Positions 1-19,566 of a DNA stretch of 21,709 nt are shown in pieces. The DNA is from a virus (lineage: Duplodnaviria > Heunggongvirae > Uroviricota > Caudoviricetes). Location of the stretch: IMG/VR virus record IMGVR_UViG_2563366822_000014, one strand, 5' to 3'. The notes below the pieces were generated by a model that was given only the letters and a program-made list of their open reading frames with translations, searched no databases and had not been told where the DNA came from. The translations under genes were made by a program, and so were the position numbers. How positions within the stretch are numbered: the stretch's first letter is position 1; every line of letters starts with the position of its first letter.

Positions 1-300
1 ATGACAAAAACAGTATCAACCAGTAAAAAACCCCGTAAACAGCATTCGCCTGAATTTCGCAGTGAAGCCCTGAAGCTTGCTGAACGCATCGGTGTTACTG
101 CCGCAGCCCGTGAACTCAGCCTGTATGAATCACAGCTCTACAACTGGCGCAGTAAACAGCAAAATCAGCAGACGTCTTCTGAACGTGAACTGGAGATGTC
201 TACCGAGATTGCACGTCTCAAACGCCAGCTGGCAGAACGGGATGAAGAGCTGGCTATCCTCCAAAAGGCCGCGACATACTTCGCGAAGCGCCTGAAATGA
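1..300 (+). CDS. insE: IS3 transposase OrfA (helix-turn-helix DNA-binding subunit)
   Basis: 99-aa [56 protein letters not shown]... recognised as IS3 OrfA; leucine-zipper-like C-terminus. Confidence 0.9.
264..267 (+). other. candidate -1 programmed ribosomal frameshift site (A AAG in CCA AAA GGC) joining orfA to orfB
   Basis: A_AAG at 264-267 lies in the orfA/orfB overlap; in the orfA frame it reads CAA AAG, in the orfB frame AAA GGC. The motif is as I recall it for IS3; the downstream structure was not evaluated. Confidence 0.5.
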
Positions 301-1163
301 AGTATGTCTTTATTGAAAAACATCAGGCTGAGTTCAGCATCAAAGCAATGTGCCGCGTGCTCCGGGTGGCCCGCAGCGGCTGGTATACGTGGTGTCAGCG
401 GCGGACAAGGATAAGCACGCGTCAGCAGTTCCGCCAACACTGCGACAGCGTTGTCCTCGCGGCTTTTACCCGGTCAAAACAGCGTTACGGTGCCCCACGC
501 CTGACGGATGAACTGCGTGCTCAGGGTTACCCCTTTAACGTAAAAACCGTGGCGGCAAGCCTGCGCCGTCAGGGACTGAGGGCAAAGGCCTCCCGGAAGT
601 TCAGCCCGGTCAGCTACCGCGCACACGGCCTGCCAGTGTCAGAAAATCTGTTGGAGCAGGATTTTTACGCCAGTGGCCCGAACCAGAAGTGGGCAGGAGA
701 CATCACGTACTTACGTACAGATGAAGGCTGGCTGTATCTGGCAGTGGTCATTGACCTGTGGTCACGTGCCGTTATTGGCTGGTCAATGTCACCACGCATG
801 ACGGCGCAACTGGCCTGCGATGCCCTGCAGATGGCGCTGTGGCGGCGTAAGAGGCCCCGGAACGTTATCGTTCACACGGACCGTGGAGGCCAGTACTGTT
901 CAGCAGATTATCAGGCGCAACTGAAGCGGCATAATCTGCGTGGAAGTATGAGCGCAAAAGGTTGCTGCTACGATAATGCCTGCGTGGAAAGCTTCTTTCA
1001 TTCGCTGAAAGTGGAATGTATCCATGGAGAACACTTTATCAGCCGGGAAATAATGCGGGCAACGGTGTTTAATTATATCGAATGTGATTACAATCGGTGG
1101 CGGCGGCACAGTTGGTGTGGCGGCCTCAGTCCGGAACAATTTGAAAACCAGAACCTCGCTTAG
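297..1163 (+). CDS. insF: IS3 transposase OrfB (DDE catalytic domain), normally expressed as OrfAB fusion by -1 frameshift
   Basis: 288-aa ORF in -1 frame relative to orfA; contains DDE-type integrase motifs (..[26 protein letters not shown].., ..HTDRGGQY.., ..[10 protein letters not shown]..). Confidence 0.9.
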
Positions 1164-1193
1164 GCCTGTGTCCATATTACGTGGGTAGGATCA

Positions 1194-1354
1194 TCTTAGT
1201 TATTGATGGTAAGGTCTGGCGAACGGTGTATTACCGGTTCGCTACCAAGGAAGAACGGGAAGGAAAGGTGAGCACGAATCTGATTTTCAAGGAGTGTCGC
1301 CAGAGTGCCGCGATGAAGCGGGTGTTGGCATTTTATCGCGGCAATTTTCAATAG
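1194..1354 (+). pseudogene. ren: 3' remnant of a lambda ren-like gene truncated by the IS3 insertion
   Basis: Frame beginning at the IS3 junction translates to LVIDGKVWRTVYYRFATKEEREGKVSTNLIFKECRQSAAMKRVLAFYRGNFQ*, which matches my recollection of the C-terminus of lambda Ren (..GKVWRTVYYRFATREEREGK..SAAMKRVLA..). No start codon; the 5' part is displaced by IS3. Confidence 0.6.
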
Positions 1355-2849: not shown

Positions 2850-2941
2850 CATACCTTTTGATTTTGTAAAATCAATTCGTAATAATAAAGTCATCGGAGC
2901 TTGAACAACTCCGGTGACTTCTGCGCTAAACGGGGACGTTT

Positions 2942-3043
2942 ATGCGCACATACAATCCAAACTCTCTTCTCCCTTCACAGATGCAGAAATGCACCTGCGA
3001 TTTTTTGCATCCAGCGTCTGACCTCTGCGGAGGTGAAGCGTGA
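2942..3043 (+). CDS. ylcH: small protein YlcH-like (33 aa)
   Basis: ATG at 2942 encodes [33 protein letters not shown], and the stop overlaps the ybcN GTG start; matches my recollection of the DLP12 ylcH position and size. Small ORF, so moderate confidence. Confidence 0.45.
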
Positions 3044-3495
3044 ACCTACCACAAGATGGCATCAAACTGCATCGCGGTAACTTCACCGCTATCGGCCAGC
3101 AGATCCAGCCTTATCTGGAGGACGGAAAATGCTTTCGCATGGTGCTTAAACCGTGGCGTGAGAAACGCAGTCTTTCCCAGAATGCACTCAGCCACATGTG
3201 GTACAGCGAAATCAGTGAATACCTCATCAGCAGGGGGAAATCGTTCGCTACCGCAGCATGGGTAAAAGATGCTCTCAAACACACATACCTCGGTTATGAA
3301 ACCAAGGACCTGGTTGATGTCGTAACCGGCGAAATCACTACTATCCAGTCGTTACGCCATACTTCCGATCTTGATACCGGAGAGATGTATGTCTTCCTGT
3401 GTAAGGTTGAAGCCTGGGCGATGAATATTGGCTGCCACCTGACTATTCCGCAGAGCTGCGAGTTCCAGCTGCTGCGCGACAAGCAGGAGGCGTAA
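3040..3495 (+). CDS. ybcN: NinB/Orf-family recombination mediator homolog (DLP12 YbcN-like)
   Basis: 151-aa ORF (GTG start) [61 protein letters not shown]... recognised as YbcN; position immediately upstream of ninE. Confidence 0.9.
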
Positions 3496-3665
3496 TGGCT
3501 ACACCGCTTATTCGTGTCATGAACGGACACATCTACAGAGTACCAAATCGTCGTAAGCGTAAGCCTGAGCTGAAGCCATCCGAAATACCAACACTGCTCG
3601 GATATACCGCTAGCCTGGTTGATAAAAAATGGTTGCGACTGGCAGCAAGGAGGAATCATGGCTGA
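3495..3665 (+). CDS. ninE: NinE-like protein (56 aa)
   Basis: ATG at 3495 overlaps the ybcN stop; translation [56 protein letters not shown]; basic small protein in the canonical nin-region position. Confidence 0.75.
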   Translation: MATPLIRVMNGHIYRVPNRRKRKPELKPSEIPTLLGYTASLVDKKWLRLAARRNHG

Positions 3666-3948
3666 TTTGAGAAAAGCAGCGCGTGGTCGGGAATGCCAGG
3701 TAAGAATCACTGGCGTATGTAATGGCAACCCTGAAACGTCTGTACTGGCACATATCCGGCTGGCTGGATTGTGCGGTACCGGTATCAAACCGCCAGACCT
3801 GATTGCCACCATTGCATGTTCTGCCTGCCACGACGAAATCGACCGCCGCACACATTTTGTCGATGCTGCATATGCAAAAGAATGCGCGCTGGAAGGTATG
3901 GCGAGAACACAGGTTATCTGGCTGAAAGAGGGGGTTATTAAGGCGTGA
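3658..3948 (+). CDS. ybcO: YbcO-like (DUF1364) putative nuclease of the nin region
   Basis: ATG at 3658 gives 96 aa [64 protein letters not shown]...; Cys-rich metal-binding pattern; overlaps the ninE stop. The ORF-track start at 3619 is rejected as an upstream extension. Confidence 0.85.
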
Positions 3949-4307
3949 ATACCTACAGTATCACATTACCCTGGCCTCCGAGCAATAATCGCTATTACCG
4001 CCATAATCGCGGGCGCACGCACGTCAGTGCAGAGGGGCAGGCATACCGCGATAACGTCGCCCGAATCATTAAAAGCGCAATGCTGGATATCGGCCTGGCT
4101 ATGCCTGTGAAAATCCGCATTGAGTGCCACATGCCGGATCGCCGTCGCCGTGACCTGGATAATCTGCAAAAAGCCGCTTTTGACGCACTCACTAAAGCAG
4201 GTTTCTGGCTGGATGATGCTCAGGTCGTTGATTACCGCGTTGTGAAGATGCCTGTTACCAAAGGTGGGAGGCTGGAACTGACCATCACCGAAATGGGGAA
4301 TGAATGA
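3945..4307 (+). CDS. rusA: RusA Holliday-junction resolvase
   Basis: 120-aa [46 protein letters not shown]... recognised as RusA; start overlaps the ybcO stop (ATGA). Confidence 0.95.
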
Positions 4308-4444
4308 TATTTGAGTTTAATATAGCAGAACTTCTTCGCCACCGCTGGGGGCGTCTGCGCTTATATCGTTTCCCCGGTTCTGTTTTGACCGATTACCGAA
4401 TACTGAAGAATTACGCCAAAACCCTGACAGGAGCAGGAGTATGA
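4304..4444 (+). CDS. ylcG: YlcG-like small protein (46 aa)
   Basis: ATG at 4304 overlaps the rusA stop; [46 protein letters not shown]; matches recalled DLP12 gene order rusA-ylcG-quuD. Confidence 0.55.
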
Positions 4445-4529
4445 AGTCAGAGATAACAATCAACTAATACTGTTTTATTGATTTTTGCTTGTAATTGGCG
4501 TTCTGGTCTGATTTTTGTGGAGTAAGTTG

Positions 4530-4913
4530 ATGCGTGATATTCAGATGGTTCTTGAGCGTTGGGGAGCGTGGGCGGCTAATAATCATGAAGATGTGACCTG
4601 GTCGTCCATTGCCGCCGGTTTTAAGGGATTAATTCCTTCAAAAGTAAAATCTCGCCCGCAATGTTGTGACGATGACGCGATGATCATTTGCGGGTGCATG
4701 GCCCGTCTGAAAAAGAACAACAGCGATTTGCACGATTTATTAGTAGATTATTATGTAGTCGGTATGACATTCATGTCACTGGCAGGTAAGCATTGCTGCT
4801 CTGATGGTTATATCGGGAAAAGGTTACAAAAGGCTGAGGGCATAATTGAAGGGATGTTAATGGCATTAGATATCCGGTTAGAGATGGATATCGTTGTTAA
4901 TAACTCTAATTAA
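4530..4913 (+). CDS. quuD: late-gene antiterminator Q (DLP12 QuuD-type, 127 aa)
   Basis: ATG at 4530 gives [62 protein letters not shown]...; Cys-rich zinc-binding pattern; sits between the nin region and the lysis genes. The ORF-track TTG start at 4515 is rejected. Confidence 0.85.
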
Positions 4914-4940
4914 TACGCCAATTATTTACTAAAAGTTATT

Positions 4941-4964
4941 AAAAATGGGGCGTTGAAACGCCCC
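4941..4964 (-). terminator. intrinsic terminator-like hairpin for minus-strand transcripts (downstream of nmpC)
   Basis: Perfect 6-bp GC stem GGGGCG/CGCCCC with 6-nt loop at 4947-4964; on the minus strand it is followed by ATTTTT (4941-4946). On the plus strand it is followed by A-rich sequence, so it is not a plus-strand terminator. Confidence 0.5.
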
Positions 4965-5052
4965 CAAAAATAAAGGGTAATATATAACAGAAGGTTTGTA
5001 TAGTTAGAAGCAAGGTTGTGCTTCTAAAGGAAGTGGCTTGAGGGAGCCACTT

Positions 5053-5086
5053 ATATGTTGGGGAGGCAAAGCCTCCCACAACATAT
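5053..5086. terminator. long stem-loop immediately 3' of the nmpC stop (3' stabiliser or terminator candidate)
   Basis: About 15 bp stem (5053-5067 with 5071-5086), one bulged A, 3-nt loop; followed on the + strand by CTTTT. The strand of action is not resolvable from sequence alone. Confidence 0.4.
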
Positions 5087-5101
5087 CTTTTAGTAATCAA
5101 A

Positions 5102-6184
5102 TTAGAACTGGTAAACCATACCTACAGCAACGATATCATCGGTAGCAACGCCAGATGCTTTCGTGAAATCGCTCTTATCAATCAGGTTGATTTTGTAGTC
5201 AACAAAAGTGGACATATTTTTGTTGAAGTAATAGGTTGCACCTACATCAACATATTCAACCAGGTCCTGATCACCCCAAACACCCAAGTCTTTTCCTTTA
5301 GAATGCAGGTAAGCAACGGATGGACGCAGGCCGAAGTCGAACTGATATTGTGCAACAGCTTCGAAGTTTTGTGCTTTGTTGGCAATATGGTTATTACCAA
5401 AAACAGTCATGTTCTGGGTTTCAGAATAGGTGGTGGCCAGATAGATGTTGTTCGCATCATATTTCAGACCAGCTGCCCATACTTCAGCATTTTGACCAGA
5501 AGCATTCAGACCGTTGTTACCGTAGATAACCTGATTATTAGTGCGATCAGATTTAGCATAGGTTGCACCTACACCGAATCCTTCATACTCATAAGTAGTG
5601 GAGAAACCGAAACCATCACCATTAGCTTCAGTTACGTCAGTGCGGTCATTTTTACCCTGATACTGAGCAGCAAAGTTCAGACCATCAACCAGACCAAAGA
5701 AGTCGTTGTTACGATAAGTTGCAACACCAGTGGTGCGACCAGTCATGAACACATCTGTTTGAGTCCAAGTGTCACCACCGAATTCTGGCAGGACGTCAGT
5801 CCACGCACCGATGTCGTATGCTACACCGTAGTTACGGCCGTAATCGATGGAGCCGTAGTCACCGAATTTCAGGCCAGCGAAGGCAAGACGGGTTTTATCT
5901 TTGGAGGAACCTTGAGATTCAGCGCGGTTGCCTTTGAATTCATATTCCCACTGACCGAAACCAGTCAGTTGATCGTTGATTTGGGTTTCACCTTTGAAGC
6001 CAAGACGGGCATAAGTAGTATCACCATCATCTGCATCATTAGAGGAGAAGTAGTGCTTAGCATTAACTTTCCCGTACAGATCCAGCTTGTTACTGTCTTT
6101 ATTATAAATTTCAGCTGCCTGAGCAGACATCGCCATCAGTACTGATGCAGCTACAGCAGAAATTGCCACTGTTAATTTTTTCAT
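5102..6184 (-). CDS. nmpC: outer-membrane general porin, NmpC/OmpD type (intact, 360 aa incl. signal peptide)
   Basis: [26 protein letters not shown]|[24 protein letters not shown]... ending ...VAVGMVYQF with the classic porin C-terminal Phe; signal peptidase site AQA|AE; recognised as NmpC-like. Confidence 0.95.
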
Positions 6185-6771
6185 CGTGAGCCCTTTTTTT
6201 TGAACTATTATTAAAAAATGATGTCACTGCGCGATAAATATTCATCTAATCAATGTGATTATTTCAAGATGTAAGTTTTAGTTTCTCATTTAATTTGTGA
6301 AGTAGATCTCTATTTTTATCTGAACTTTTTCTATCGAAACCTATTTATGGCTCTTATTTGAACAAAAATAAACCTATTAGCTAATTTATATTAATGGCTG
6401 TTATTTATGGGGGGCTATAATTCGATGGTTTAATTTAAATTAACTAAAAATAACGCCGGAAATTATTTATTGGTTATTTGTTGAGGTTTTCTTATGTATT
6501 TGTGGTGGTGTTTTGAACACTCGGTAGCATTCTCATAAATATCATTCAGTGGTTTACGTACGTAAAAAATTGGTTATGCTGTTAAGAGTGGTTACTTCGT
6601 CACACAGCTTAAACCCGCCGTCGAGCTGGTTTTTCCATTTTTTGAGTCTCGATATTAGCTGATAACTCAATACCTGAGTTATTCACTGACTCCGAGTCTG
6701 TTACGTTTCTGCTTTTTTGCGATACGTTGTATTCCCTCAATTTACACCCGCTTTGTCTGCGAGGTGGGGTT
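6185..6771. promoter_or_regulatory. 587-bp AT-rich non-coding region: nmpC promoter/5'UTR (minus strand) and leader of the lysis operon (plus strand)
   Basis: No ORF over about 17 codons; strongly AT-rich with A/T tracts and short palindromes (6431-6444 ttaatttaaattaa; 6559-6568 tacgtacgta; 8-bp inverted repeat ataactca/tgagttat around 6664-6684). Promoter elements are not confidently placed. Confidence 0.5.
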
Positions 6772-6987
6772 ATGAAATCCATGGATAAGTTAACAACGGG
6801 TGTCGCCTATGGCACCTCAGCAGGTAGTGCCGGTTACTGGTTTTTACAGCTGCTCGATAAAGTCACGCCCTCACAGTGGGCAGCAATAGGTGTGCTGGGT
6901 AGCCTGGTATTTGGCCTGCTGACGTACCTGACAAACCTTTATTTCAAGATTAAAGAAGATAAGCGCAAGGCTGCGAGAGGTGAATAA
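6772..6987 (+). CDS. essD: class II holin / pinholin (S21-like) with dual-start motif
   Basis: ATG at 6772 gives 71 aa [71 protein letters not shown]; Met1-Lys2-Ser3-Met4 dual start, two TM segments, charged C-terminus. The ORF-track TTG start at 6727 is rejected. Confidence 0.9.
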
Positions 6988-7484
6988 TGCCTCCATCATT
7001 ACGAAAAGCCGTTGCTGCTGCTATTGGTGGCGGAGCAATTGCTATAGCATCAGTGTTAATCACTGGCCCAAGTGGTAACGATGGTCTGGAAGGTGTCAGC
7101 TACATACCATACAAAGATATTGTTGGTGTATGGACCGTATGTCACGGGCATACAGGAAAAGACATCATGCTCGGTAAAACGTATACCAAAGCAGAATGCA
7201 AAGCACTCTTGAATAAAGACCTTGCCACTGTCGCCAGACAAATTAACCCATACATCGAAGTCGATATACCGGAAACAACGCGCGGCGCTCTTTACTCATT
7301 CGTTTACAACGTGGGTGCTGGCAATTTCAGAACATCGACGCTTCTTCGCAAAATAAACCAGGGCGATATCAAAGGCGCATGTGATCAGTTACGTCGCTGG
7401 ACATATGCTGGCGGTAAGCAATGGAAAGGTCTCATGACTCGTCGTGAGATTGAGCGTGAAATCTGTTTGTGGGGTCAGCAATGA
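6987..7484 (+). CDS. rrrD: SAR endolysin (T4-lysozyme-type muramidase, R21-like)
   Basis: 165-aa ORF; N-terminal Gly/Ala-rich weakly hydrophobic signal-anchor-release segment ([20 protein letters not shown]), then E35 ... D44 ... T50 spacing typical of the lysozyme catalytic triad; start overlaps the holin stop. Confidence 0.95.
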
Positions 7485-7942
7485 ACAGAGTAACCGCGAT
7501 TATCTCCGCTCTGGTTATCTGCATCATCGTCTGCCTGTCATGGGCTGTTAATCATTACCGTGATAACGCCATTACCTATAAAGCCCAGCGCGACAAAAAT
7601 GCCAAAGAACTGAAGCTGGCGAACGCGGCAATTACTGACATGCAGATGCGTCAGCGTGATGTTGCTGCGCTCGATGCAAAATACACGAAGGAGTTAGCTG
7701 ATGCGAAAGCTGAAAATGATGCTCTGCGTGATGATGTTGCCGCTGGTCGTCGTCGGTTGCACATCAAAGCAGTCTGTCAGTCAGTGCGTGAAGCCACCAC
7801 CGCCTCCGGCGTGGATAATGCAGCCTCCCCCCGACTGGCAGACACCGCTGAACAGGATTATTTCACCCTCAGAGAGAGGCTGATCACTATGCAAAAACAA
7901 CTGGAAGGAACCCAGAAGTATATTAATGAGCAGCGCAGATAG
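7481..7942 (+). CDS. rzpD: i-spanin (Rz-like inner-membrane spanin)
   Basis: ATG at 7481 overlapping the rrrD stop; [55 protein letters not shown]... with N-terminal TM and coiled-coil periplasmic domain. Confidence 0.9.
7701..7883 (+). CDS. rzoD: o-spanin (Rz1-like outer-membrane lipoprotein) embedded in +1 frame within rzpD
   Basis: 60-aa [23 protein letters not shown]|[40 protein letters not shown] with lipobox and proline-rich body, entirely inside the Rz gene in another frame. Confidence 0.85.
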
Positions 7943-7943
7943 A

Positions 7944-7965
7944 GCTGCCCATATCGATGGGCAAC
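7944..7965. terminator. hairpin between convergent rzpD and borD
   Basis: Inverted repeat around tgcccat-atcg-atgggca (about 8-9 bp stem) in the 31-bp gap between the two convergent stops; no strong T-run, so it may be a bidirectional or stabilising structure. Confidence 0.4.
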
Positions 7966-7973
7966 TCATGCAA

Positions 7974-8267
7974 TTATTGTGAGCAATACACACGCGCTTC
8001 CAGCGGAGTATAAATGCCTAAAGTAATAAAACCGAGCAATCCATTTACGAATGTTTGCTGGGTTTCTGTTTTAACAACATTTTCTGCGCCGCCACAAATT
8101 TTGGCTGCATCAACAGTTTTCTCCTGTCCAATTCCCGAAACGAAGAAGTGATGGGTGATGGTTTCCTTTGGTGTTACTGCTGTCGGTTTGTTTCCAACAG
8201 TAAACGTCTGTTGAGCACATCCTGTAATAAGCATTGCCAGAGCGGCAGAAAACAACATTTTTTTCAT
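7974..8267 (-). CDS. borD: Bor lipoprotein (serum-resistance, Iss-family)
   Basis: ATG at 8267 gives 97 aa MKKMLFSAALAMLITGC|AQQTFTVGNKPTAVTPKETITHHFFVSGIGQEKTVDAAKICGGAENVVKTETQQTFVNGLLGFITLGIYTPLEARVYCSQ; lipobox; lambda-like position after the spanins on the opposite strand. The ORF-track start at 8315 is rejected. Confidence 0.9.
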   Translation of the reverse strand: MKKMLFSAALAMLITGCAQQTFTVGNKPTAVTPKETITHHFFVSGIGQEKTVDAAKICGGAENVVKTETQQTFVNGLLGFITLGIYTPLEARVYCSQ

Positions 8268-8627
8268 CTTATTATCCTGCATTGTTAAAAACGGCAGAAT
8301 CCTATGTGACAACAATTAAACGATAGTTAAATGGATTGATGAAAATTAAAACTATATAGGTGGATGCTCAGCCTATTGGAGGAGGGGGGGCACTCAGAAT
8401 CCTGTGGAATGAAATAAACCGCTCTATCTGTCCATTACCCTTTTAGCTGCGCTGTATCGTCGCCGTATTCCCGCATTAACCATGACCGTAGCCCGACGGG
8501 GAATTCCTTCTGCGTGAGTGTGCGGGAATAATCAAAAACGATGCACACCGGGTTTTACTGTGCTGACAGACGCAGGGTTACCCTCATAGTCGCTTTTCCG
8601 GTGCGATGGTGGAAGAAACCGGGATGT

Positions 8628-8822
8628 TCATCCATCATCACTTTGGATTGATGTATATGCTCTCTTTTCTGACGTTAGTCTCCGACGGCAGGCTTCAATG
8701 ACCCAGGCTGAGAAATTCCCAGACCCTTTTTGCTCAAGAGCGATGTTAATTTGTTCAATCATTTGGTTAGGAAAGCGGATGTTGCGGGTTGTTGTTCTGC
8801 GGGTTCTGTTCTTCGTTGACAT
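8628..8822 (-). CDS. small ribbon-helix-helix-like (Arc/MetJ/TraY-type) protein, 64 aa
   Basis: MSTKNRTRRTTTRNIRFPNQMIEQINIALEQKGSGNFSAWVIEACRRRLTSEKRAYTSIQSDDG: basic N-terminus, the pattern R..IRFP...IE.I compatible with a beta-strand-helix-helix DNA-binding fold; DNA matches my recollection of the extreme right end of lambda. Confidence 0.55.
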   Translation of the reverse strand: MSTKNRTRRTTTRNIRFPNQMIEQINIALEQKGSGNFSAWVIEACRRRLTSEKRAYTSIQSDDG

Positions 8823-9020
8823 GAGGTTGCCCCGTATTCAGTGTCGCTGATTTGTATTGTCTGAAGTTGTTTTTACGTTAAGTTGATGCAGATCAATTAA
8901 TACGATACCTGCGTCATAATTGATTATTTGACGTGGTTTGATGGCGTAGATGCACGTTGTGACATGTAGATGATAATTATTATCATTTTGCGGGTCCTTT
9001 CCGGCGATCCGACAGGTTAC

Positions 9021-9033
9021 GGGGCGGCGACCT
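9021..9033 (+). other. cosN (cohesive-end nicking site) of lambda-type cos
   Basis: Sequence ...cgacaggttacg|gggcggcgacct|cgcgggttttcgc; the lambda left cohesive end GGGCGGCGACCT preceded by the right-end ...GTTACG. Exact nick positions are +/- 1 bp because of an extra G. Confidence 0.85.
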
Positions 9034-9073
9034 CGCGGGTTTTCGCTATTTATGAAAATTTTCCGGTTTAAGG

Positions 9074-9187
9074 CGTTTCCGTTCTTCTTCGTCGTAACTT
9101 AATGTTTTTATTTAAAATACCCCCTGAAAAGAAAGGAAACGACAGGTGCTGAAAACGAACTTTTGGGCCTTTGTCGTTTCCTTTCTC
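9074..9187 (+). promoter_or_regulatory. cosB: three gpNu1 binding repeats (R3, R2 inverted, R1)
   Basis: CGTTTCCGTTCT at 9074-9085 (R3), CGTTTCCTTTC on the opposite strand at 9131-9141 (R2), CGTTTCCTTTCTC at 9175-9187 (R1); spacing and orientation as I recall for lambda cosB. Confidence 0.8.
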
Positions 9188-9210
9188 TGTTTTTGGCCGT
9201 GGAATGAACA

Positions 9211-9730
9211 ATGGAAGTCAACAAAAAGCAGCTGGCTGACATTTTCGGTGCGAGTATCCGTACCATTCAGAACTGGCAGGAACAGGGAATGCCCGTTCTG
9301 CGAGGCGGTGGCAAGGGTAATGAGGTGCTTTATGACTCTGCCGCCGTTATAAGATGGTATGCCGAAAGGGATGCTGAAATTGAGAACGAAAAGCTGCGCC
9401 GGGAAGTTGAAGAACTGCGGCAGGCCAGCGAGACAGATCTCCAGCCAGGGACTATTGAGTACGAACGCCATCGACTTACGCGTGCGCAGGCCGACGCACA
9501 GGAGCTGAAAAATGCCAGAGACTCCGCTGAAGTGGTGGAAACCGCATTCTGTACTTTCGTGCTGTCGCGGATCGCAGGTGAAATTGCCAGTATTCTCGAC
9601 GGGATCCCCCTGTCGGTGCAGCGGCGTTTTCCGGAACTGGAAAACCGACATGTTGATTTCCTGAAACGGGATATCATCAAAGCCATGAACAAAGCAGCCG
9701 CGCTGGATGAACTGATACCGGGGTTGCTGA

Positions 9731-9756
<26 letters not shown>
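9211..9756 (+). CDS. nu1: terminase small subunit gpNu1
   Basis: 181-aa ORF MEVNKKQLADIFGASIRTIQNWQEQGMPVLRGGGKGNEVLYDSAAVIRWYAERD...; winged-HTH N-terminus; recognised as lambda Nu1, starting about 190 bp after cosN. Confidence 0.95.
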
Positions 9757-13437
<3,681 letters not shown>

Positions 13438-13457
<20 letters not shown>

Positions 13458-14757
13458 TCTCCCTCATATTGCCAGCATGGCCTTTAATGAGCCGCTGATG
13501 CTTGAACCCGCCTATGCGCGGGTTTTCTTTTGTGCGCTTGCAGGCCAGCTTGGGATCAGCCGCCTTACGGATGCGGTGTCCGGTGACAGCCTGGCTGCCG
13601 GAGAGGCACCCGCGACGCTGGCGTTATCCGGTGATGATGACGGACCACGACAGGCCCGCAGTTATCAGGTCATGAACGGCATCGCCGTGCTGCCGGTGTC
13701 CGGCACGCTGGTCAGCCGGACGCGGGCGCTGCAGCCGTATTCGGGGATGACCGGTTACAACGGCATTATCGCCCGTCTGCAACAGGCTGCCAGCGATCCG
13801 ATGGTGGACGGCATTCTGCTCGATATGGACACGCCAGGCGGGATGGTGGCGGGGGCATTTGACTGCGCTGACATCATCGCCCGTGTGCGTGACATAAAAC
13901 CGGTATGGGCGCTGGCCAACGACATGAACTGCAGTGCAGGTCAGTTGCTTGCCAGTGCCGCCTCCCGGCGTCTGGTCACGCAGACCGCCCGGACAGGCTC
14001 CATCGGCGTCATGATGGCTCACAGTAATTACGGTGCTGCGCTGGAGAAACAGGGTGTGGAAATCACGCTGATTTACAGCGGCAGCCATAAGGTGGATGGC
14101 AACCCCTACAGCCATCTTCCGGATGACGTCCGGGAGACACTGCAGTCCCGGATGGACGCAACCCGCCAGATGTTTGCGCAGAAGGTGTCGGCATATACCG
14201 GCCTGTCTGTGCAGGCTGTGCTGGATACAGAGGCTGCAGTGTACAGCGGTCAGGAGGCCATTGATGCCGGACTGGCTGATGAACTTATTAACAGCACCGA
14301 TGCGATCACCGTCATGCGTGATGCACTGGATGCACGTAAATCCCGTCTCTCAGGAGGGCGAATGACCAAAGAGACTCAATCAACAACTGTTTCAGCCACT
14401 GCTTCGCAGGCTGACGTTACTGACGTGGTGCCAGCGACGGAGGGCGAAAACGCCAGCGCGGCGCAGCCGGACGTGAACGCGCAGATCACCGCTGCGGTTG
14501 CGGCAGAAAACAGCCGCATTATGGGGATCCTCAACTGTGAGGAGGCTCACGGACGTGAAGAACAGGCACGCGTGCTGGCCGAAACCCCCGGTATGACCGT
14601 GGAAACGGCCCGCCGCATTCTGGCAGCTGCACCACAGAGTGCACAGGCGCGCAGTGACACTGCGCTGGATCGTCTGATGCAGGGGGCACCGGCACCGCTG
14701 GCTGCAGGTAACCCGGCATCTGATGCCGTTAACGATTTGCTGAACACACCAGTGTAA
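13438..14757 (+). CDS. C: head maturation protease / minor capsid protein gpC (ClpP/SppA-like fold)
   Basis: GTG at 13438 gives MTAELRNLPHIASMAFNEPLMLEPAYARVFFCALAGQ... (439 aa); overlaps the B 3' end by 20 nt. The ORF-track start at 13303 is an in-frame upstream extension and is rejected. Confidence 0.9.
14152..14757 (+). CDS. nu3: scaffolding protein gpNu3, in-frame internal start within C
   Basis: ATG at 14152 is in the C frame (MDATRQMFAQKVSAYTGLSVQ...), giving 201 aa sharing the C-terminus of gpC, as in lambda's nested C/Nu3 arrangement. The internal initiation is inferred from lambda, not shown by the sequence. Confidence 0.7.
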   Translation: MDATRQMFAQKVSAYTGLSVQAVLDTEAAVYSGQEAIDAGLADELINSTDAITVMRDALDARKSRLSGGRMTKETQSTTVSATASQADVTDVVPATEGENASAAQPDVNAQITAAVAAENSRIMGILNCEEAHGREEQARVLAETPGMTVETARRILAAAPQSAQARSDTALDRLMQGAPAPLAAGNPASDAVNDLLNTPV

Positions 14758-14766
14758 GGGATGTTT

Positions 14767-15099
14767 ATGACGAGCAAAGAAACCTTTACCCATTACCAGC
14801 CGCTGGGCAACAGTGACCCGGCACATACGGCAACCGCGCCCGGCGGATTGAGTGCGAAAGCGCCTGCAATGACCCCGCTGATGCTGGATACCTCCACCCG
14901 TAAGCTGGTTGCGTGGGATGGCACCACCGACGGTGCTGCCGTTGGCATTCTGGCGGTTGATGCTGACCAGACCAGCACCACGCTGACGTTCTACAAGTCC
15001 GGCACGTTCCGTTATGAGGATGTGCTCTGGCCGGAGGCTGCCAGCGACGAGACGAAAAAACGGACCGCGTTTGCCGGAACGGCAATCAGCATCGTTTAA
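14767..15099 (+). CDS. D: head decoration protein gpD
   Basis: ATG at 14767: [64 protein letters not shown]... (110 aa). The ORF-track start at 14761 adds two codons. Confidence 0.95.
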
Positions 15100-15119
15100 C
15101 TTTACCCTTCATCACTAAA

Positions 15120-15141
15120 GGCCGCCTGTGCGGCTTTTTTT
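15120..15141 (+). terminator. terminator-like GC hairpin plus T7 run between D and E
   Basis: GCCGC-ctgt-GCGGC stem-loop (15121-15134) followed immediately by TTTTTTT (15135-15141), flanked by AAAG, about 20 nt before the E start. Confidence 0.5.
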
Positions 15142-15154
15142 ACGGGATTTTTTT

Positions 15155-16180
15155 ATGTCGATGTACACAACCGCCCAGCTGCTGGCGGCAAATGAGAAGA
15201 AATTTAAGTTTGATCCGCTGTTTCTGCGTCTCTTTTTCCGTGAGAGCTATCCCTTCACCACGGAGAAAGTCTATCTCTCACAAATTCCGGGACTGGTAAA
15301 CATGGCGCTGTACGTTTCGCCGATTGTTTCCGGTGAGGTTATCCGCTCCCGTGGCGGCTCCACCTCTGAATTTACACCGGGATATGTCAAACCCAAGCAT
15401 GAGGTGAATCCGCAGATGACCCTGCGTCGCCTGCCGGATGAAGATCCACAGAATCTGGCGGACCCGGCTTACCGCCGCCGTCGCATCATCCTGCAGAACA
15501 TGCGAGACGAAGAGCTGGCCATTGCTCAGGTCGAAGAGATGCAGGCAGTTTCTGCCGTGCTTAAGGGCAAATACACCATGACCGGTGAAGCCTTCGATCC
15601 GGTTGAAGTGGATATGGGCCGCAGTGTGGCGAACAACATCACGCAGTCCGGCGGTACGGAGTGGAGCAAGCGTGACAAGTCCACGTATGACCCGACCGAC
15701 GATATCGAAGCCTACGCGCTGAACGCCAGCGGTGTGGTGAATATCATCGTGTTTGATCCGAAAGGCTGGGCGCTGTTCCGTTCCTTCAAAGCCGTCAGGG
15801 AGAAGCTGGATACCCGTCGCGGCTCTAATTCCGAGCTGGAGACAGCGGTAAAAGACCTGGGCGAAGCGGTGTCCTATAAGGGGATGTATGGCGATACGGC
15901 GATCGTCGTGTATTCCGGACAGTATGTGGAAAACGACGTCAAAAAGAACTTCCTGCCGGACAACACGATGGTGCTGGGAAACACTCAGGCACGCGGTCTG
16001 CGCACCTATGGCTGCATTCAGGATGCGGACGCACAGCGCGAAGGTATTAACGCCTCTGCCCGCTACCCGAAAAACTGGGTGACCACCGGCGATCCGGCGC
16101 GTGAGTTCACCATGATTCAGTCAGCACCGCTGATGCTGCTGGCTGACCCTGATGCGTTCGTGTCCGTACAACTGGCGTAA
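15155..16180 (+). CDS. E: major capsid protein gpE
   Basis: ATG at 15155: MSMYTTAQLLAANEKKFKFDPLFLRLFFRESYPFTTEKVYLSQIPGLVNMALYVSPIVSGE... (341 aa); recognised as lambda gpE. The ORF-track start at 15128 is rejected. Confidence 0.97.
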   Translation: MSMYTTAQLLAANEKKFKFDPLFLRLFFRESYPFTTEKVYLSQIPGLVNMALYVSPIVSGEVIRSRGGSTSEFTPGYVKPKHEVNPQMTLRRLPDEDPQNLADPAYRRRRIILQNMRDEELAIAQVEEMQAVSAVLKGKYTMTGEAFDPVEVDMGRSVANNITQSGGTEWSKRDKSTYDPTDDIEAYALNASGVVNIIVFDPKGWALFRSFKAVREKLDTRRGSNSELETAVKDLGEAVSYKGMYGDTAIVVYSGQYVENDVKKNFLPDNTMVLGNTQARGLRTYGCIQDADAQREGINASARYPKNWVTTGDPAREFTMIQSAPLMLLADPDAFVSVQLA

Positions 16181-16221
16181 TCATGGCCCTTCGGGGCCAT
16201 TTTCTCTCTGTGGAGGAGTCC

Positions 16222-16617
16222 ATGACGAAAGATGAACTGATTGCCCGTCTTCAGGTGCTGGGTGAGCAACTGAACCGTGATGTCAGCCTGACGGGGACGA
16301 AAGAAGAACTGGTGCTCCGTGTGGCAGAGCTGGAAGAGGAGCTTGATGACACGGATGACGCTGCCGGTCAGGACACATCTGTCAGCCCGGAAAATGCGCT
16401 GACCGGACATGAAAATGAGGTGGTATCAGCGCAGCCGGATACCGTGATTGATACGGCTGCTCTGGTCACGGTCGTGGCACTGGTGACGCTGCATACTGAT
16501 GCACTTCACGCCACGCGGGATGAGCCTGTGGCATTTGTGCTGCCGGGAACGGCGTTTCGTGTCTCTGCCGGTGTGGCAGCCGAAATGACAGAACATGGCC
16601 TGGCCAGAATGCAATAA
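16222..16617 (+). CDS. FI: DNA-packaging accessory protein gpFI
   Basis: ATG at 16222: MTKDELIARLQVLGEQLNRDVSLTGTKEELVLRVAELEEELDDTDDAAGQDTSVSPENALTGHENEV... (131 aa). Confidence 0.9.
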   Translation: MTKDELIARLQVLGEQLNRDVSLTGTKEELVLRVAELEEELDDTDDAAGQDTSVSPENALTGHENEVVSAQPDTVIDTAALVTVVALVTLHTDALHATRDEPVAFVLPGTAFRVSAGVAAEMTEHGLARMQ

Positions 16618-16628
16618 CGGGAGGCGCT

Positions 16629-16982
16629 GTGGCTGATTCCGATAACCTGTTCGATGCTGCCATTGCCCGCGCCGATGAAACGATACGCGGGTACATGGGA
16701 ACGTCAGCCACCATGACATCCGGTGAGCTGTCCGGTGCTGTGATACGTGGTGTTTTTGATGACCCTGAAAATATCAGCTATGCCGGACAGGGGGTGCGCG
16801 TTGAAGGCTCCAGCCCGTCCCTGTTTGTCCGGACTGATGATGTGCGGCAGCTGCGGCGCGGCGACACGCTGACCATCGGTGAGGAAAACTTCTGGGTGGA
16901 CCGGATTTCGCCGGATGATGGCGGAAGCTGTCATCTCTGGCTTGGGCGGGGCGTACCGCCTGCCGTTAACCGTCGCCGCTGA
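16629..16982 (+). CDS. FII: head completion / head-tail connector protein gpFII
   Basis: 117-aa ORF MADSDNLFDAAIARADETIRGYMGTSATMTSGELSGAVIRGVFDDPENISYAGQGVRVEGSSPSLFVRTDD... Confidence 0.92.
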   Translation: MADSDNLFDAAIARADETIRGYMGTSATMTSGELSGAVIRGVFDDPENISYAGQGVRVEGSSPSLFVRTDDVRQLRRGDTLTIGEENFWVDRISPDDGGSCHLWLGRGVPPAVNRRR

Positions 16983-16993
16983 AAGGGGGATGT

Positions 16994-17572
16994 ATGGCCA
17001 TAAAAGGTCTTGAGCAGGCCGTTGAAAACCTCAGCCGTATCAGCAGAACGGCGGTGCCCGGTGCCGCCGCAATGGCCATTAACCGCGTTGCTTCATCCGC
17101 GATATCGCAGTCGGCGTCACAGGTTGCCCGTGAGACAAAGGTACGCCGGAAACTGGTAAAGGAAAGGGCCAGGCTGAAAAGGGCCACGGTCAAAAATCCG
17201 CAGGCCAGAATCAAGGTTAACCGGGGGGATTTGCCCGTAATAAAGCTGGGTAACGTGCGGATTGTCCTGTCCCGACGCAGGCGTCGTAAAAAGGGGCAGC
17301 GTTCAGCCCTGAAAGGTGGCGGCAGCGTGCTTGTGGTGGGAAACCGTCGTATTCCCGGCGCGTTTATTCAGCAACTGAAAAATGGCCGCTGGCATGTCAT
17401 GCAGCGTGTGGCCGGGAAAAACCGTTACCCCATTGATGTGGTGAAAATCCCGATGGCGGTGCCGCTGACCACGGCGTTTAAACAGAATATTGAGCGGATA
17501 CGGCGTGAGCGTCTTCCGAAAGAGCTGGGCTATGCGCTGCAGCATCAACTGAGGATGGTAATAAAGCGATGA
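16994..17572 (+). CDS. Z: tail completion protein gpZ
   Basis: 192-aa ORF MAIKGLEQAVENLSRISRTAVPGAAAMAINRVASSAISQSASQVARETKVRRKLV... Confidence 0.9.
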   Translation: MAIKGLEQAVENLSRISRTAVPGAAAMAINRVASSAISQSASQVARETKVRRKLVKERARLKRATVKNPQARIKVNRGDLPVIKLGNVRIVLSRRRRRKKGQRSALKGGGSVLVVGNRRIPGAFIQQLKNGRWHVMQRVAGKNRYPIDVVKIPMAVPLTTAFKQNIERIRRERLPKELGYALQHQLRMVIKR

Positions 17573-17964
17573 AACATACTGAACTCCGTGCAGCCGTACT
17601 GGATGCACTGGAGAAGCATGACACCGGGGCGACGTTTTTTGATGGTCGCCCCGCTGTTTTTGATGAGGCGGATTTTCCGGCAATTGCCGTTTATCTCACC
17701 GGCGCTGAATACACGGGCGAAGAGCTGGACAGCGATACCTGGCAGGCGGAGCTGCATATTGAAGTTTTCCTGCCTGCTCAGGTGCCGGATTCAGAGCTGG
17801 ATTCGTGGATGGAGTCCCGGATTTATCCGGTGATGAGCGATATCCCGGCACTGTCAGATTTGATCACCAGTATGGTGGCCAGTGGCTATGACTACCGGCG
17901 CGACGATGATGCGGGCCTGTGGAGTTCTGCCGATCTGACGTATGTCATTACCTATGAAATGTGA
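17569..17964 (+). CDS. U: tail terminator protein gpU
   Basis: 131-aa [74 protein letters not shown]...; start overlaps the Z stop. Confidence 0.92.
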
Positions 17965-17971
17965 GGACGCT

Positions 17972-18712
17972 ATGCCTGTACCAAATCCTGTAATGCCGGT
18001 GAAAGGTGCCGGGACCACCCTGTGGGTTTATAAGGGGAGCGGTGACCCTTATGCGAACCCGCTTTCAGACGTTGACTGGTCGCGTCTGGCAAAAGTTAAA
18101 GACCTGACGCCCGGCGAACTGACCGCTGAGTCCTATGACGACAGCTATCTCGATGATGAAGATGCAGACTGGACTGCGACCGGGCAGGGGCAGAAATCTG
18201 CCGGAGATACCAGCTTCACGCTGGCGTGGATGCCCGGAGAGCAGGGGCAGCAGGCGCTGCTGGCGTGGTTTAATGAAGGTGATACCCGTGCCTATAAAAT
18301 CCGCTTCCCGAACGGCACGGTCGATGTGTTCCGCGGCTGGGTCAGCAGTATCGGTAAGGCGGTGACGGCGAAGGAAGTGATTACCCGCACGGTGAAAGTC
18401 ACCAACGTAGGACGTCCGTCGATGGCAGAAGATCGCAGCACGGTAACAGCGGCAACCGGCATGACCGTGACGCCTGCCAGCACCTCGGTGGTGAAAGGGC
18501 AGAGCACGACGCTGACCGTGGCATTCCAGCCGGAAGGCGCAACCGACAAGAGCTTCCGTGCGGTGTCTGCGGATAAAACAAAAGCCACCGTGTCGGTCAG
18601 TGGTATGACCATCACCGTGAAAGGTGTTGCTGCAGGCAAGGTCAACATTCCGGTCGTATCCGGTAATGGTGAGTTTGCTGCGGTTGCAGAAATCAACGTC
18701 ACCGCCAGTTAA
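17972..18712 (+). CDS. V: major tail tube protein gpV (with C-terminal Ig-like domain)
   Basis: ATG at 17972: [57 protein letters not shown]... (246 aa). The ORF-track start at 17942 is rejected. Confidence 0.95.
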
Positions 18713-18727
18713 TCCGGAGAGTCAGCG

Positions 18728-19150
18728 ATGTTCCTGAAAACCGAATCATTTGAACATAACGGTGTGACCGTCACGCTTTCTGAACTGTCAGCCCTGCAGC
18801 GTATTGAGCATCTCGCCCTGATGAAACGACAGGCAGAACAGGCGGAGTCAGACAGCAACCGGAAGTTTACTGTGGAAGACGCCATCAGAACCGGCGCTTT
18901 TGTGGTGGCGATGTCCCTGTGGCATAACCATCCGCAGAAGACAAAGCTGCCTTCTATGAATGAAGCCGTTAAACAGATTGAGCAGGAAGTGCTTACCACC
19001 TGGCCCACGGAGGCAATTTCTCATGCTGAAAACGTGGTGTACCGGCTGTCCGGTATGTATGAGTTTGTGGTGAATGATGCTCCTGAACAGACAGAGGACG
19101 CCGGGCCTGCAGAGCCTGTTTCTGCGGGAAAGTGTTCGACGGTGAGCTGA
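18728..19150 (+). CDS. G: tail assembly chaperone gpG
   Basis: 140-aa ORF MFLKTESFEHNGVTVTLSELSALQRIEHLALMKRQAEQAESDSNRKFTVEDAIRTGAFVVAMSLWHNHPQK... Confidence 0.92.
   Translation: MFLKTESFEHNGVTVTLSELSALQRIEHLALMKRQAEQAESDSNRKFTVEDAIRTGAFVVAMSLWHNHPQKTKLPSMNEAVKQIEQEVLTTWPTEAISHAENVVYRLSGMYEFVVNDAPEQTEDAGPAEPVSAGKCSTVS
19126..19132 (+). other. programmed -1 frameshift slippery heptamer G GGA AAG producing the gpG-T fusion
   Basis: GGGAAAG at 19126-19132, in the G frame as G.GGA.AAG; a -1 slip puts ribosomes in the T frame (ORF 19132-19566), 20 nt before the G stop. Confidence 0.85.
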
Positions 19151-19566
19151 GTTTTGCCCTGAAACTGGCGCGAGAGATGGGGCGACCCGACTGGCGTGCC
19201 ATGCTTGCCGGGATGTCATCCACGGAGTATGCCGACTGGCACCGCTTTTACAGTACCCATTATTTTCATGATGTTCTGCTGGATATGCACTTTTCCGGGC
19301 TGACGTACACCGTGCTCAGCCTGTTTTTCAGCGATCCGGATATGCATCCGCTGGATTTCAGTCTGCTGAACCGGCGCGAGGCTGACGAAGAGCCTGAAGA
19401 TGATGTGCTGATGCAGAAAGCGGCAGGGCTTGCCGGAGGCGTTCGTTTTGGCCCGGACGGGAATGAAGTTATCCCCGCTTCCCCGGATGTGGCGGACATG
19501 ACGGAGGATGACGTAATGCTGATGACAGTATCAGAAGGGATCGCAGGAGGAGTCCGGTATGGCTGA
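19132..19566 (+). CDS. T: gpT portion of tail assembly chaperone (expressed only as G-T fusion via -1 frameshift)
   Basis: 144-aa -1 frame ORF overlapping the G 3' end, ...ELSFALKLAREMGRPDWRAMLAGMSSTEYADWHRFYSTHYFHDVLLDMHF...; no independent RBS is expected. Confidence 0.85.
   Translation: MFDGELSFALKLAREMGRPDWRAMLAGMSSTEYADWHRFYSTHYFHDVLLDMHFSGLTYTVLSLFFSDPDMHPLDFSLLNRREADEEPEDDVLMQKAAGLAGGVRFGPDGNEVIPASPDVADMTEDDVMLMTVSEGIAGGVRYG

Follow-up and report, generated by a model that had tools for sequence, protein, structure and literature searches.

The cos-ylcI region of a probable DLP12-lineage prophage in Escherichia coli KTE142 and its relation to phage lambda

The stretch of DNA analysed here (the window, 21,709 bp) carries the late genes of a lambda-like prophage, with a cos packaging site between a bor-family lipoprotein gene and the terminase genes. 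From its coordinates, the window corresponds to the final 21,709 bp of a 4,668,452-bp scaffold of Escherichia coli KTE142 (KB732916.1, assembly GCA_000351925.1), and the two are 100% identical over 17,942 bp. One contig only, from E. coli KTE142, has exact copies of the window's portal, C and RzpD proteins. The genes and other large features of the window are, from left to right:

1-1192, plus strand, IS3 (insE/insF), 99-100% identical to K-12 IS3C; the window starts 65 bp inside the 1,258-bp element
1193-1327, plus strand, 3' fragment of ren, recognized by alignment with K-12, lambda and PhiR30_1 and by blastn
4530-4913, plus strand, quuD, DLP12-type late antiterminator Q, intact, sharing 99.2% amino acid identity with K-12 QuuD and with the Q of viable phages
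5102-6184, minus strand, prophage porin at the nmpC position, an intact 360-aa allele with no IS5, 91% amino acid identity to the 365-aa allele
6772-7942, plus strand, lysis cassette essD, rrrD, rzpD of DLP12 type, 94-100% amino acid identity to K-12
7701-7883, rzoD, embedded in the lysis cassette
7974-8267, minus strand, bor-family lipoprotein gene, iss allele, whose product shares 99% identity with the RefSeq-annotated Iss of strain 2c3 and 91.8% with lambda Bor
8103-8610, no strand, block unlike lambda and K-12 DLP12 (5' half of iss, its upstream region and a short remnant)
8628-8822, minus strand, ylcI (DUF3950, 64 aa), a conserved neighbour of cos in lambda, DLP12 and relatives
9211-9756, plus strand, nu1/nohD, terminase small subunit, 181 aa, intact, 98.3% amino acid identity to lambda Nu1
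9731-11656, plus strand, A, terminase large subunit, 641 aa, intact, 99.5% amino acid identity to lambda A
11653-19566, plus strand, W, B, C/Nu3, D, E, FI, FII, Z, U, V, G and T, all intact
19126, G-T slippery heptamer GGGAAAG
19559-21709, plus strand, H (tape measure), first 716 of about 853 codons, intact that far

The cos of lambda spans about 200 bp and is composed of cosQ, cosN, the spacer I2 and a 120-bp cosB (PMC4669245). Within cosB are R3, the IHF site I1, an inverted R2 and R1, and base pairs 56, 58 and 59 of R3 are critical; cosQ is a conserved 7-bp element that lies 5' of cosN and is needed for the termination of packaging (PMC4669245). The window holds the same elements:

8992-8998, plus strand, cosQ heptamer GGGTCCT, the same in five of five aligned sequences (lambda, K-12 DLP12, PhiR30_1, 2c3 and the window)
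9022-9033, plus strand, cosN 12-nt cohesive-end sequence GGGCGGCGACCT, exact match
9074-9085, plus strand, cosB R3, the critical Nu1-binding site, identical to lambda including base pairs 56, 58 and 59
9088-9125, no strand, I1 region, predicted IHF site between R3 and R2, core identical to lambda
9130-9141, minus strand, cosB R2, inverted, core match, identical to lambda
9175-9186, plus strand, cosB R1, core match, identical to lambda

The cohesive-end sequence has a single match in the whole window (chance expectation 0.05). The R-sequence core CGTTTCCKTTCT has these three matches in the window and no others (expected 0.15), and three or more were obtained in 0 of 100 shuffles. The orientations of the R sequences are + / - / +, R2 being inverted with respect to R3 and R1, and R2 and R1 together form the expected inverted repeat. 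The cos of lambda has the same cohesive end, cosQ, R cores, spacing, orientation and distance to the start of nu1 as the window, with cosQ equated with lambda bp 48473-48479 by our own count. Lambda has the same sequence in the flanks at 9008-9071, which take in the I2 spacer and what remains of cosN, and in the five-way alignment of the window, lambda, K-12 DLP12, PhiR30_1 and the 2c3 prophage, cosQ, cosN, I2, the R cores and the I1 core are invariant.

Over its 231 bp (8985-9215), the cos segment is 96.1% identical to lambda and 100% identical to phage PhiR26_1, which, like the other PhiR phages, is called viable on the strength of its GenBank host field. The nine substitutions relative to lambda spare the R cores, cosQ and cosN; they are found 5' of cosQ, at positions 9094 and 9123, and in the interval from R2 to R1. 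Those in the I1 interval (A to G at 9094 and T to C at 9123) are common to K-12 DLP12 and the viable PhiR26_1, and the differing positions between R2 and R1 (9155, 9159, 9165 and 9171) are all common to PhiR26_1 as well. The site thus has what characterizes a complex cos of lambda type: a cohesive end, cosQ, a cosB with three R sequences and the gene for the cognate small terminase subunit directly 3'. Its identity with lambda and with viable relatives suggests that it would serve as a working packaging site of lambda specificity.

The terminase genes nu1 and A are full length with zero internal stops, and residues 1-47 of Nu1 are identical to those of lambda. The exact Nu1 protein and the exact A protein are each found on at least 1000 contigs in public assemblies. 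The 15 late ORFs and the partial H are free of lesions, and the late proteins share 87.9-100% amino acid identity with lambda and 96-100% with PhiR30_1 and 2c3; the late genes may also be expressible. H is cut by the end of the scaffold (position 4,668,452), which is an assembly limit and not a lesion. The tail tip gene J and the fibres would lie beyond this scaffold end inside H, and the morphogenesis genes that can be seen are those from Nu1 to T and 716 codons of H. The original prediction had described cosN and three Nu1-binding repeats followed by complete nu1 and A genes, all of which are located here at exact coordinates, and had considered the packaging site and terminase to be functional in appearance, a view favored by the match of the full cos segment to PhiR26_1 and by late proteins that are 88-100% identical to those of lambda and other viable phages.

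To the left of the bor-family gene, the Q and lysis genes share 94-100% amino acid identity with K-12 DLP12, and the porin is a different allele whose exact protein is present on at least 1000 contigs. Homology to lambda begins at the start codon of Rz, at 7481 (blastn). It does not continue evenly to cos; homology to both lambda and K-12 DLP12 ends at 8321 and restarts at 8611 (blastn). Within this interval, 8322-8444 and 8556-8610 have no homology to lambda or K-12 DLP12 by blastn, and 8445-8555 is 82-83% similar to a short stretch that lies just upstream of bor in lambda and K-12 (blastn). Substitutions unique to the window begin earlier, at 8103, within the bor-family gene. Relative to lambda and K-12, about 1.1 kb containing ybcV and ybcW is missing from the window, which has a short remnant instead.

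The genes iss and bor encode serum-resistance lipoproteins of lambdoid prophages and ColV-type plasmids, and it is the Iss of 2c3 that the product of the window resembles at 99%. At the substitutions that distinguish the RefSeq-annotated Iss of 2c3 from Bor, the product agrees with Iss; lambda Bor differs from the product at 8 of 97 residues and is unlike it in the whole upstream region. The ORF also continues in frame upstream (to 8282), adding the residues MQDNK, an extension that we take to be a hallmark of Iss. The assignment to iss follows the RefSeq annotation of the 2c3 protein. The block at 8103-8610 is an iss allele in place of bor, with its own upstream sequence, together with a deletion of ybcV-ybcW relative to both references. 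This part of the window is frequent in the species: 8250-8700 is matched at 80% coverage or more in 1,099 of 5,426 complete E. coli genomes, many of them 100% identical, and the phages Turner, ev207 and PhiR11_1 share the junction at 100% identity. Matches from a search of plasmids were for the most part misfiled chromosomes and lambda, and they give no information on iss in plasmids. A scan of 4300-9400 against Rfam gave one chance match to a miRNA (E = 0.84) and no structured RNA that would account for 8322-8610, and a promoter/terminator scan of 7900-9300 gave counts not above those of shuffled sequence.

The relation of the window to its two references can be followed in the blastn matches:

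2856-5143, to K-12 DLP12, 96.8%
5160-8321, to K-12 DLP12, 92.3%
8611-10038, to K-12 DLP12, 98.2% (the ylcI-cos-nohD-A' segment)
7481-8321, to lambda, 94.4%
8611-21709 (the window end), to lambda, 97.9%

In E. coli K-12 MG1655 the annotated gene order of DLP12 is rzpD-borD-ybcV-ybcW-ylcI-(cos)-nohD-aaaD'-tfaD, which is equal to that of lambda (Rz-bor-ybcV-ybcW-ylcI-cos-nu1). Lambda and DLP12 diverge at the boundary between the R and Rz genes (7481 in the window) and have the same module rightward of it. At the sites in 8611-10038 where lambda and K-12 differ, the window is K-12-like at 16 and lambda-like at 9, in interleaved order and with no switch point. A single point of recombination between lambda and K-12 within 8611-10038 is ruled out by this interleaving.

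The deletions in K-12 DLP12 were defined by reference to the complete argU prophage of strain 2c3, which extends from intD to ompT. In comparison with it, K-12 DLP12 is without the 21.7 kb from about codon 103 of A to tfa (22848-44550 of the 2c3 locus, L004), and also without 6822-13561 (exo to P) and 5162-6517 of the same locus. The original prediction was therefore right that K-12 DLP12 has no head-tail module, but it named the wrong remnant: nohD of K-12 is annotated as full length (181 aa), and it is the A homologue, aaaD, that is truncated. K-12 DLP12 proves to be a derivative of the window's type of prophage by the A-to-tfa and exo-to-P deletions. Its derivation from an argU prophage of the 2c3 type would make the lambda-like cos and left arm native to the lineage, and the cos and head-tail arm of the window are best regarded as an original part of DLP12 and not as a graft.

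K-12 DLP12 and the KTE142 element share the fimZ-argU locus, Q, lysis, Rz, ylcI, cos and nohD at 92-99% nucleotide identity, and both have an IS3 in ren, with junctions 43 bp apart. K-12 DLP12 has an IS5 in nmpC, possesses bor, ybcV, ybcW and emrE-ybcK-ybcL-ybcM, and has lost A to tfa and exo to P. In contrast, the KTE142 element keeps A to H and an intact porin, carries iss and neither ybcV nor ybcW, has other cargo between ren and ybcN, and has lost int to ren' entirely.

Relatives of the window are numerous. The whole-window arrangement is found at 80% coverage or more in 832 of the 5,426 complete E. coli genomes, and nine deposited phage genomes match the whole window as well, for example PhiR30_1, PhiR34_1, Turner, PhiR68_2 and PhiR26_1. 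The relatives compared most closely have the following accessions:

PhiR26_1, GenBank PV340555
PhiR30_1, GenBank PV340558
PhiR11_1, GenBank PV340547
Turner, GenBank PP925837
ev207, GenBank LR597636

By megablast, PhiR30_1, Turner, PhiR26_1 and PhiR11_1 are 97.0-97.3% identical to the window over 83-93% of its length, and the match to ev207 does not begin until 9071, covering 58% of the window at 98.8%. Viable Lambdavirus phages with a late region of DLP12 type have the gene order Q-porin-lysis-bor/iss-(ybcV-ybcW)-ylcI-cos-nu1-A...H, as does the window. The record of PhiR26_1 gives K-12 MG1655 as the propagation host. PhiR30_1 has an integrase of DLP12 size at one end and ompT at the other and is in effect a live DLP12; it has the integrase, immunity and replication genes that the KTE142 element is without. 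Prophages at the DLP12 locus were found in 74% of 638 E. coli and Shigella genomes (PMC6379469), and Lambdavirus phages are the temperate phages most commonly released spontaneously by infant-gut E. coli (PMC6969025). In phage 434B the region from Q through lysis is replaced by a DLP12 late segment (PMC9119081).

The left flank of the KTE142 element shows what has become of its early genes. From left to right, the scaffold contains the sfm fimbrial genes, fimZ, argU, 119 bp of the 3' end of intD, the 1,258-bp IS3 and the 3' end of ren. The tRNA-Arg(UCU) gene argU is at 2246-2322 of the KTE142 locus (L017) and is followed by the 3' end of intD. The element therefore sits at the 3' end of argU, adjoining fimZ, and its right (ompT) side is beyond the scaffold. 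IS3 replaces 9,978 bp of the strain 2c3 prophage (4023-14000 of L004), and int, xis, exo, bet, gam, kil, the repressor/cro-like genes, O, P and the 5' part of ren are missing. An integrase/excisionase pair is absent, intD being reduced to the 119 bp of its 3' end, and the immunity region and O and P are likewise absent, as read from the draft scaffold. Since int to P are lost, the KTE142 element is incapable of excising itself, replicating itself or being induced.

The 3-bp flanks of IS3 (GCA and TCT) differ and form no target-site duplication, so that the two flanks come from different target sites; there are zero Ns at the junctions. Unequal flanks of this kind would be expected if the region was deleted, or if two IS3 copies recombined, but not from a simple insertion. 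When K-12, lambda and PhiR30_1 are aligned with the window, IS3 is seen to join ren 43 bp further downstream than IS3C does in K-12. As one piece this IS3-ren junction was present in 0 of the 5,426 complete E. coli genomes. Neither the junction nor the window-specific cosB spacer had an exact match among GTDB genome contigs, and the junction likewise had none among metagenome contigs. The KTE142 element is, to all appearances, a cryptic prophage that occupies the DLP12 locus, cannot act autonomously and has kept its late region in good condition. The suggestion that it might be a packaging-competent relative of DLP12 is supported as regards kinship, the element being a DLP12 relative at the same argU locus, and fails on autonomy, int to P being gone. 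When the remainder of the prophage was inspected, as the original prediction had proposed, an inactivating lesion, which that prediction had named as grounds for its refutation, was indeed found, in that a single IS3 stands in place of int to P and the 5' part of ren.

Several other explanations of the region can be weighed against this evidence. In the original prediction, the element was a recombinant in which nin/Q/nmpC/lysis genes of DLP12 type were joined, between bor and about 8600, to the right end and left arm of lambda, giving a packaging-competent and possibly inducible relative of DLP12. In its favor, there is a true break at 8322-8610 in homology to lambda and K-12 DLP12, the late genes are free of lesions, and K-12 DLP12 lacks the head-tail module. 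The break is nevertheless a deletion or allele replacement relative to both references, that is, a widespread iss allele with loss of ybcV-ybcW and not a joint between lambda and DLP12, and it is common. K-12 DLP12 is itself homologous to lambda through Rz, bor, ybcV, ybcW, ylcI, cos and nohD into A, and no joint is therefore needed; in the alignment with lambda and K-12, the references part at 7481 instead of near 8600. The cos segment of the window is moreover slightly nearer to K-12 than to lambda, its informative sites are interleaved, and the early region is missing in the source scaffold. A recombinant origin is for these reasons very unlikely. It is also unlikely, if less strikingly so, that the prophage is complete and inducible and that argU-intD'-IS3-ren' is an assembly collapse of two IS3 copies flanking an intact early region. 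The IS3 junctions are read from a draft scaffold whose sequencing method is not given, and a collapse of flanking IS3 copies would mean a complete prophage; this scaffold ends inside H, where repeats are a problem, IS3 is multicopy in E. coli, and argU also harbours intact relatives whose late region is the same. However, both junctions are continuous and free of Ns, an IS3 within intD would disrupt the integrase anyway, and K-12 shows IS3-associated decay of the same region.

The state of the late genes raises the question of whether they are kept for a purpose. They are strikingly intact despite the loss of 10 kb of early genes, and the cos is identical to that of a viable phage, as might be expected of a retained and possibly selected late-gene unit that depends on a helper or produces particles, for example through cleavage of cos in situ and rightward packaging of chromosomal DNA upon infection by a lambda-like helper. 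A recent deletion predicts the same intactness equally well, however, and with the IS3-ren junction in none of the complete genomes there is no sign that a lineage has maintained the unit. No cognate early or regulatory replacement is seen, and a second cos about 38-51 kb downstream is needed for lambda packaging to complete a particle. We give such a unit almost no credence. It is similarly highly improbable that the prophage, having no early genes, is kept as a helper-activated unit in which a superinfecting lambda-like phage or stress-driven Q would lead to cutting of the chromosomal cos and rightward packaging of the neighbouring chromosome on the ompT side. Were this reading true, E. coli would have a system for lateral transduction of cos type or for donating particles.

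In all likelihood, 8600-9210 comprises the cos and ylcI of a prophage of Lambdavirus type that belongs to the DLP12 lineage and is integrated at argU in E. coli KTE142, with a lambda-like arm that is native and early genes that have been lost. At such a cos, a Nu1 dimer would contact R3 and R2 on either side of I1, where IHF would bend the DNA, and R1 would play an accessory part. So placed, Nu1 would position gpA to nick cosN with a 12-nt stagger, and packaging would proceed rightward, from nu1 towards J. When terminase arrives from upstream, cosQ would be used and packaging would terminate (PMC4669245). The KTE142 copy would have decayed apart from that of K-12, by losing about 10 kb of early genes in a deletion associated with IS3. 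What it keeps, within the limits of the scaffold, are Q, the porin, cos and the genes for lysis, terminase, head and tail. With a single integrated cos and no excision, replication or early promoters, the element would form no concatemer and have no second cos, so that no infectious particles would be produced from the KTE142 element alone.

The cos and late genes of the KTE142 element would matter only in trans, by recombination into an incoming lambda-like phage or by complementation of it, and it is plausible that the element acts as a reservoir of late genes and cos for such phages. Recombination between prophage remnants and lambdoid phages is known to occur (PMC6379469). The lysis and late genes of the element may be expressed at a low level, an activity also reported for those of K-12 DLP12.

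The two prophages can be seen as two decay products of one ancestral state, K-12 DLP12 having lost structural genes and the KTE142 element early genes. The lambda-like cos and structural arm would be the ancestral state of the DLP12 lineage, which corrects the assumption that DLP12 represents an unrelated type of late region. Cryptic prophages can evidently keep intact packaging and morphogenesis modules, which are open to pickup by incoming lambdoid phages. The findings belong to the well-known biology of lambda and DLP12 in a common family of E. coli prophages and are, as such, already known. The combination of an iss allele with an intact prophage porin in the KTE142 element is of minor interest for strain typing.

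Across window positions 1-1327 and positions 2246-3847 of L017 (the E. coli KTE142 locus that covers the DNA to the left of the window), one IS3 bridges the 3' end of intD and the 3' end of ren. The intD remnant is 119 bp long and adjoins argU, and about 10 kb of early genes are replaced by the IS3 at this junction. No target duplication was found in the flanks of the element. E. coli K-12 also carries an IS3 copy (IS3C) in the ren of its cryptic prophage DLP12, but the two IS3-ren junctions are 43 bp apart; thus, ren has been struck by IS3 at least two times in this prophage lineage.

Between ren and ybcN lies a cargo hotspot (1328-2855 in the window), which in this element contains a lipoprotein gene and an open reading frame:

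1840-2400, YajG-family lipoprotein gene
2397-2849, open reading frame of 150 aa

In K-12 the interval is occupied by emrE-ybcK-ybcL-ybcM, while strain 1335KP has two genes annotated as anti-phage and the viable Lambdavirus phage PhiR26_1 has PD-lambda-1 and Rha.

The position of nmpC is filled by an intact porin gene that lacks IS5:

5102-6184, minus strand, porin of 360 aa

It is a distinct allele, with 81-91% nucleotide and 91% amino acid identity to the 365-aa form found in K-12, in the complete argU prophage of E. coli strain 2c3 and in the viable phage PhiR30_1. The exact window protein is encoded by at least 1,000 contigs, some of them from Shigella, and it is named OmpC, OmpD or LC depending on the source.

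Further right lies a gene of the bor family:

7974-8282, minus strand, iss allele, including the MQDNK extension

This allele shares 99% identity with the RefSeq-annotated Iss of strain 2c3, and the in-frame upstream extension MQDNK is presumably a hallmark of Iss. The allele has its own upstream sequence (within 8268-8610), and ybcV and ybcW are missing. Viable phages share this junction, as do approximately 1,100 complete E. coli genomes. Three PLSDB "plasmids" of about 48.5 kb, the length of lambda, from Paenibacillus, Stenotrophomonas and Salmonella (NZ_CP068597.1, NZ_CP104294.1 and NZ_CP082339.1) show about 95.5% identity to the bor-ybcV-ybcW-ylcI-cos-nu1 region of lambda type; these are probably lambda control DNA entered as plasmids.

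The window ends at 21709 with its source scaffold (KB732916.1 position 4,668,452), inside gene H and 411 nt short of the expected stop, and covers the element only to the left of the tail-tip, fibre and attR side.

Related prophages at four loci from other E. coli genomes (L006, L008, L012 and L014) display further states of decay, and the backbone they share with the window erodes in many independent ways. Examples include tail-fibre or methyltransferase genes directly after Nu1, as in K-12, a porin replaced by a lipocalin and a DUF1722 gene, and a lysis cassette with IS insertions.
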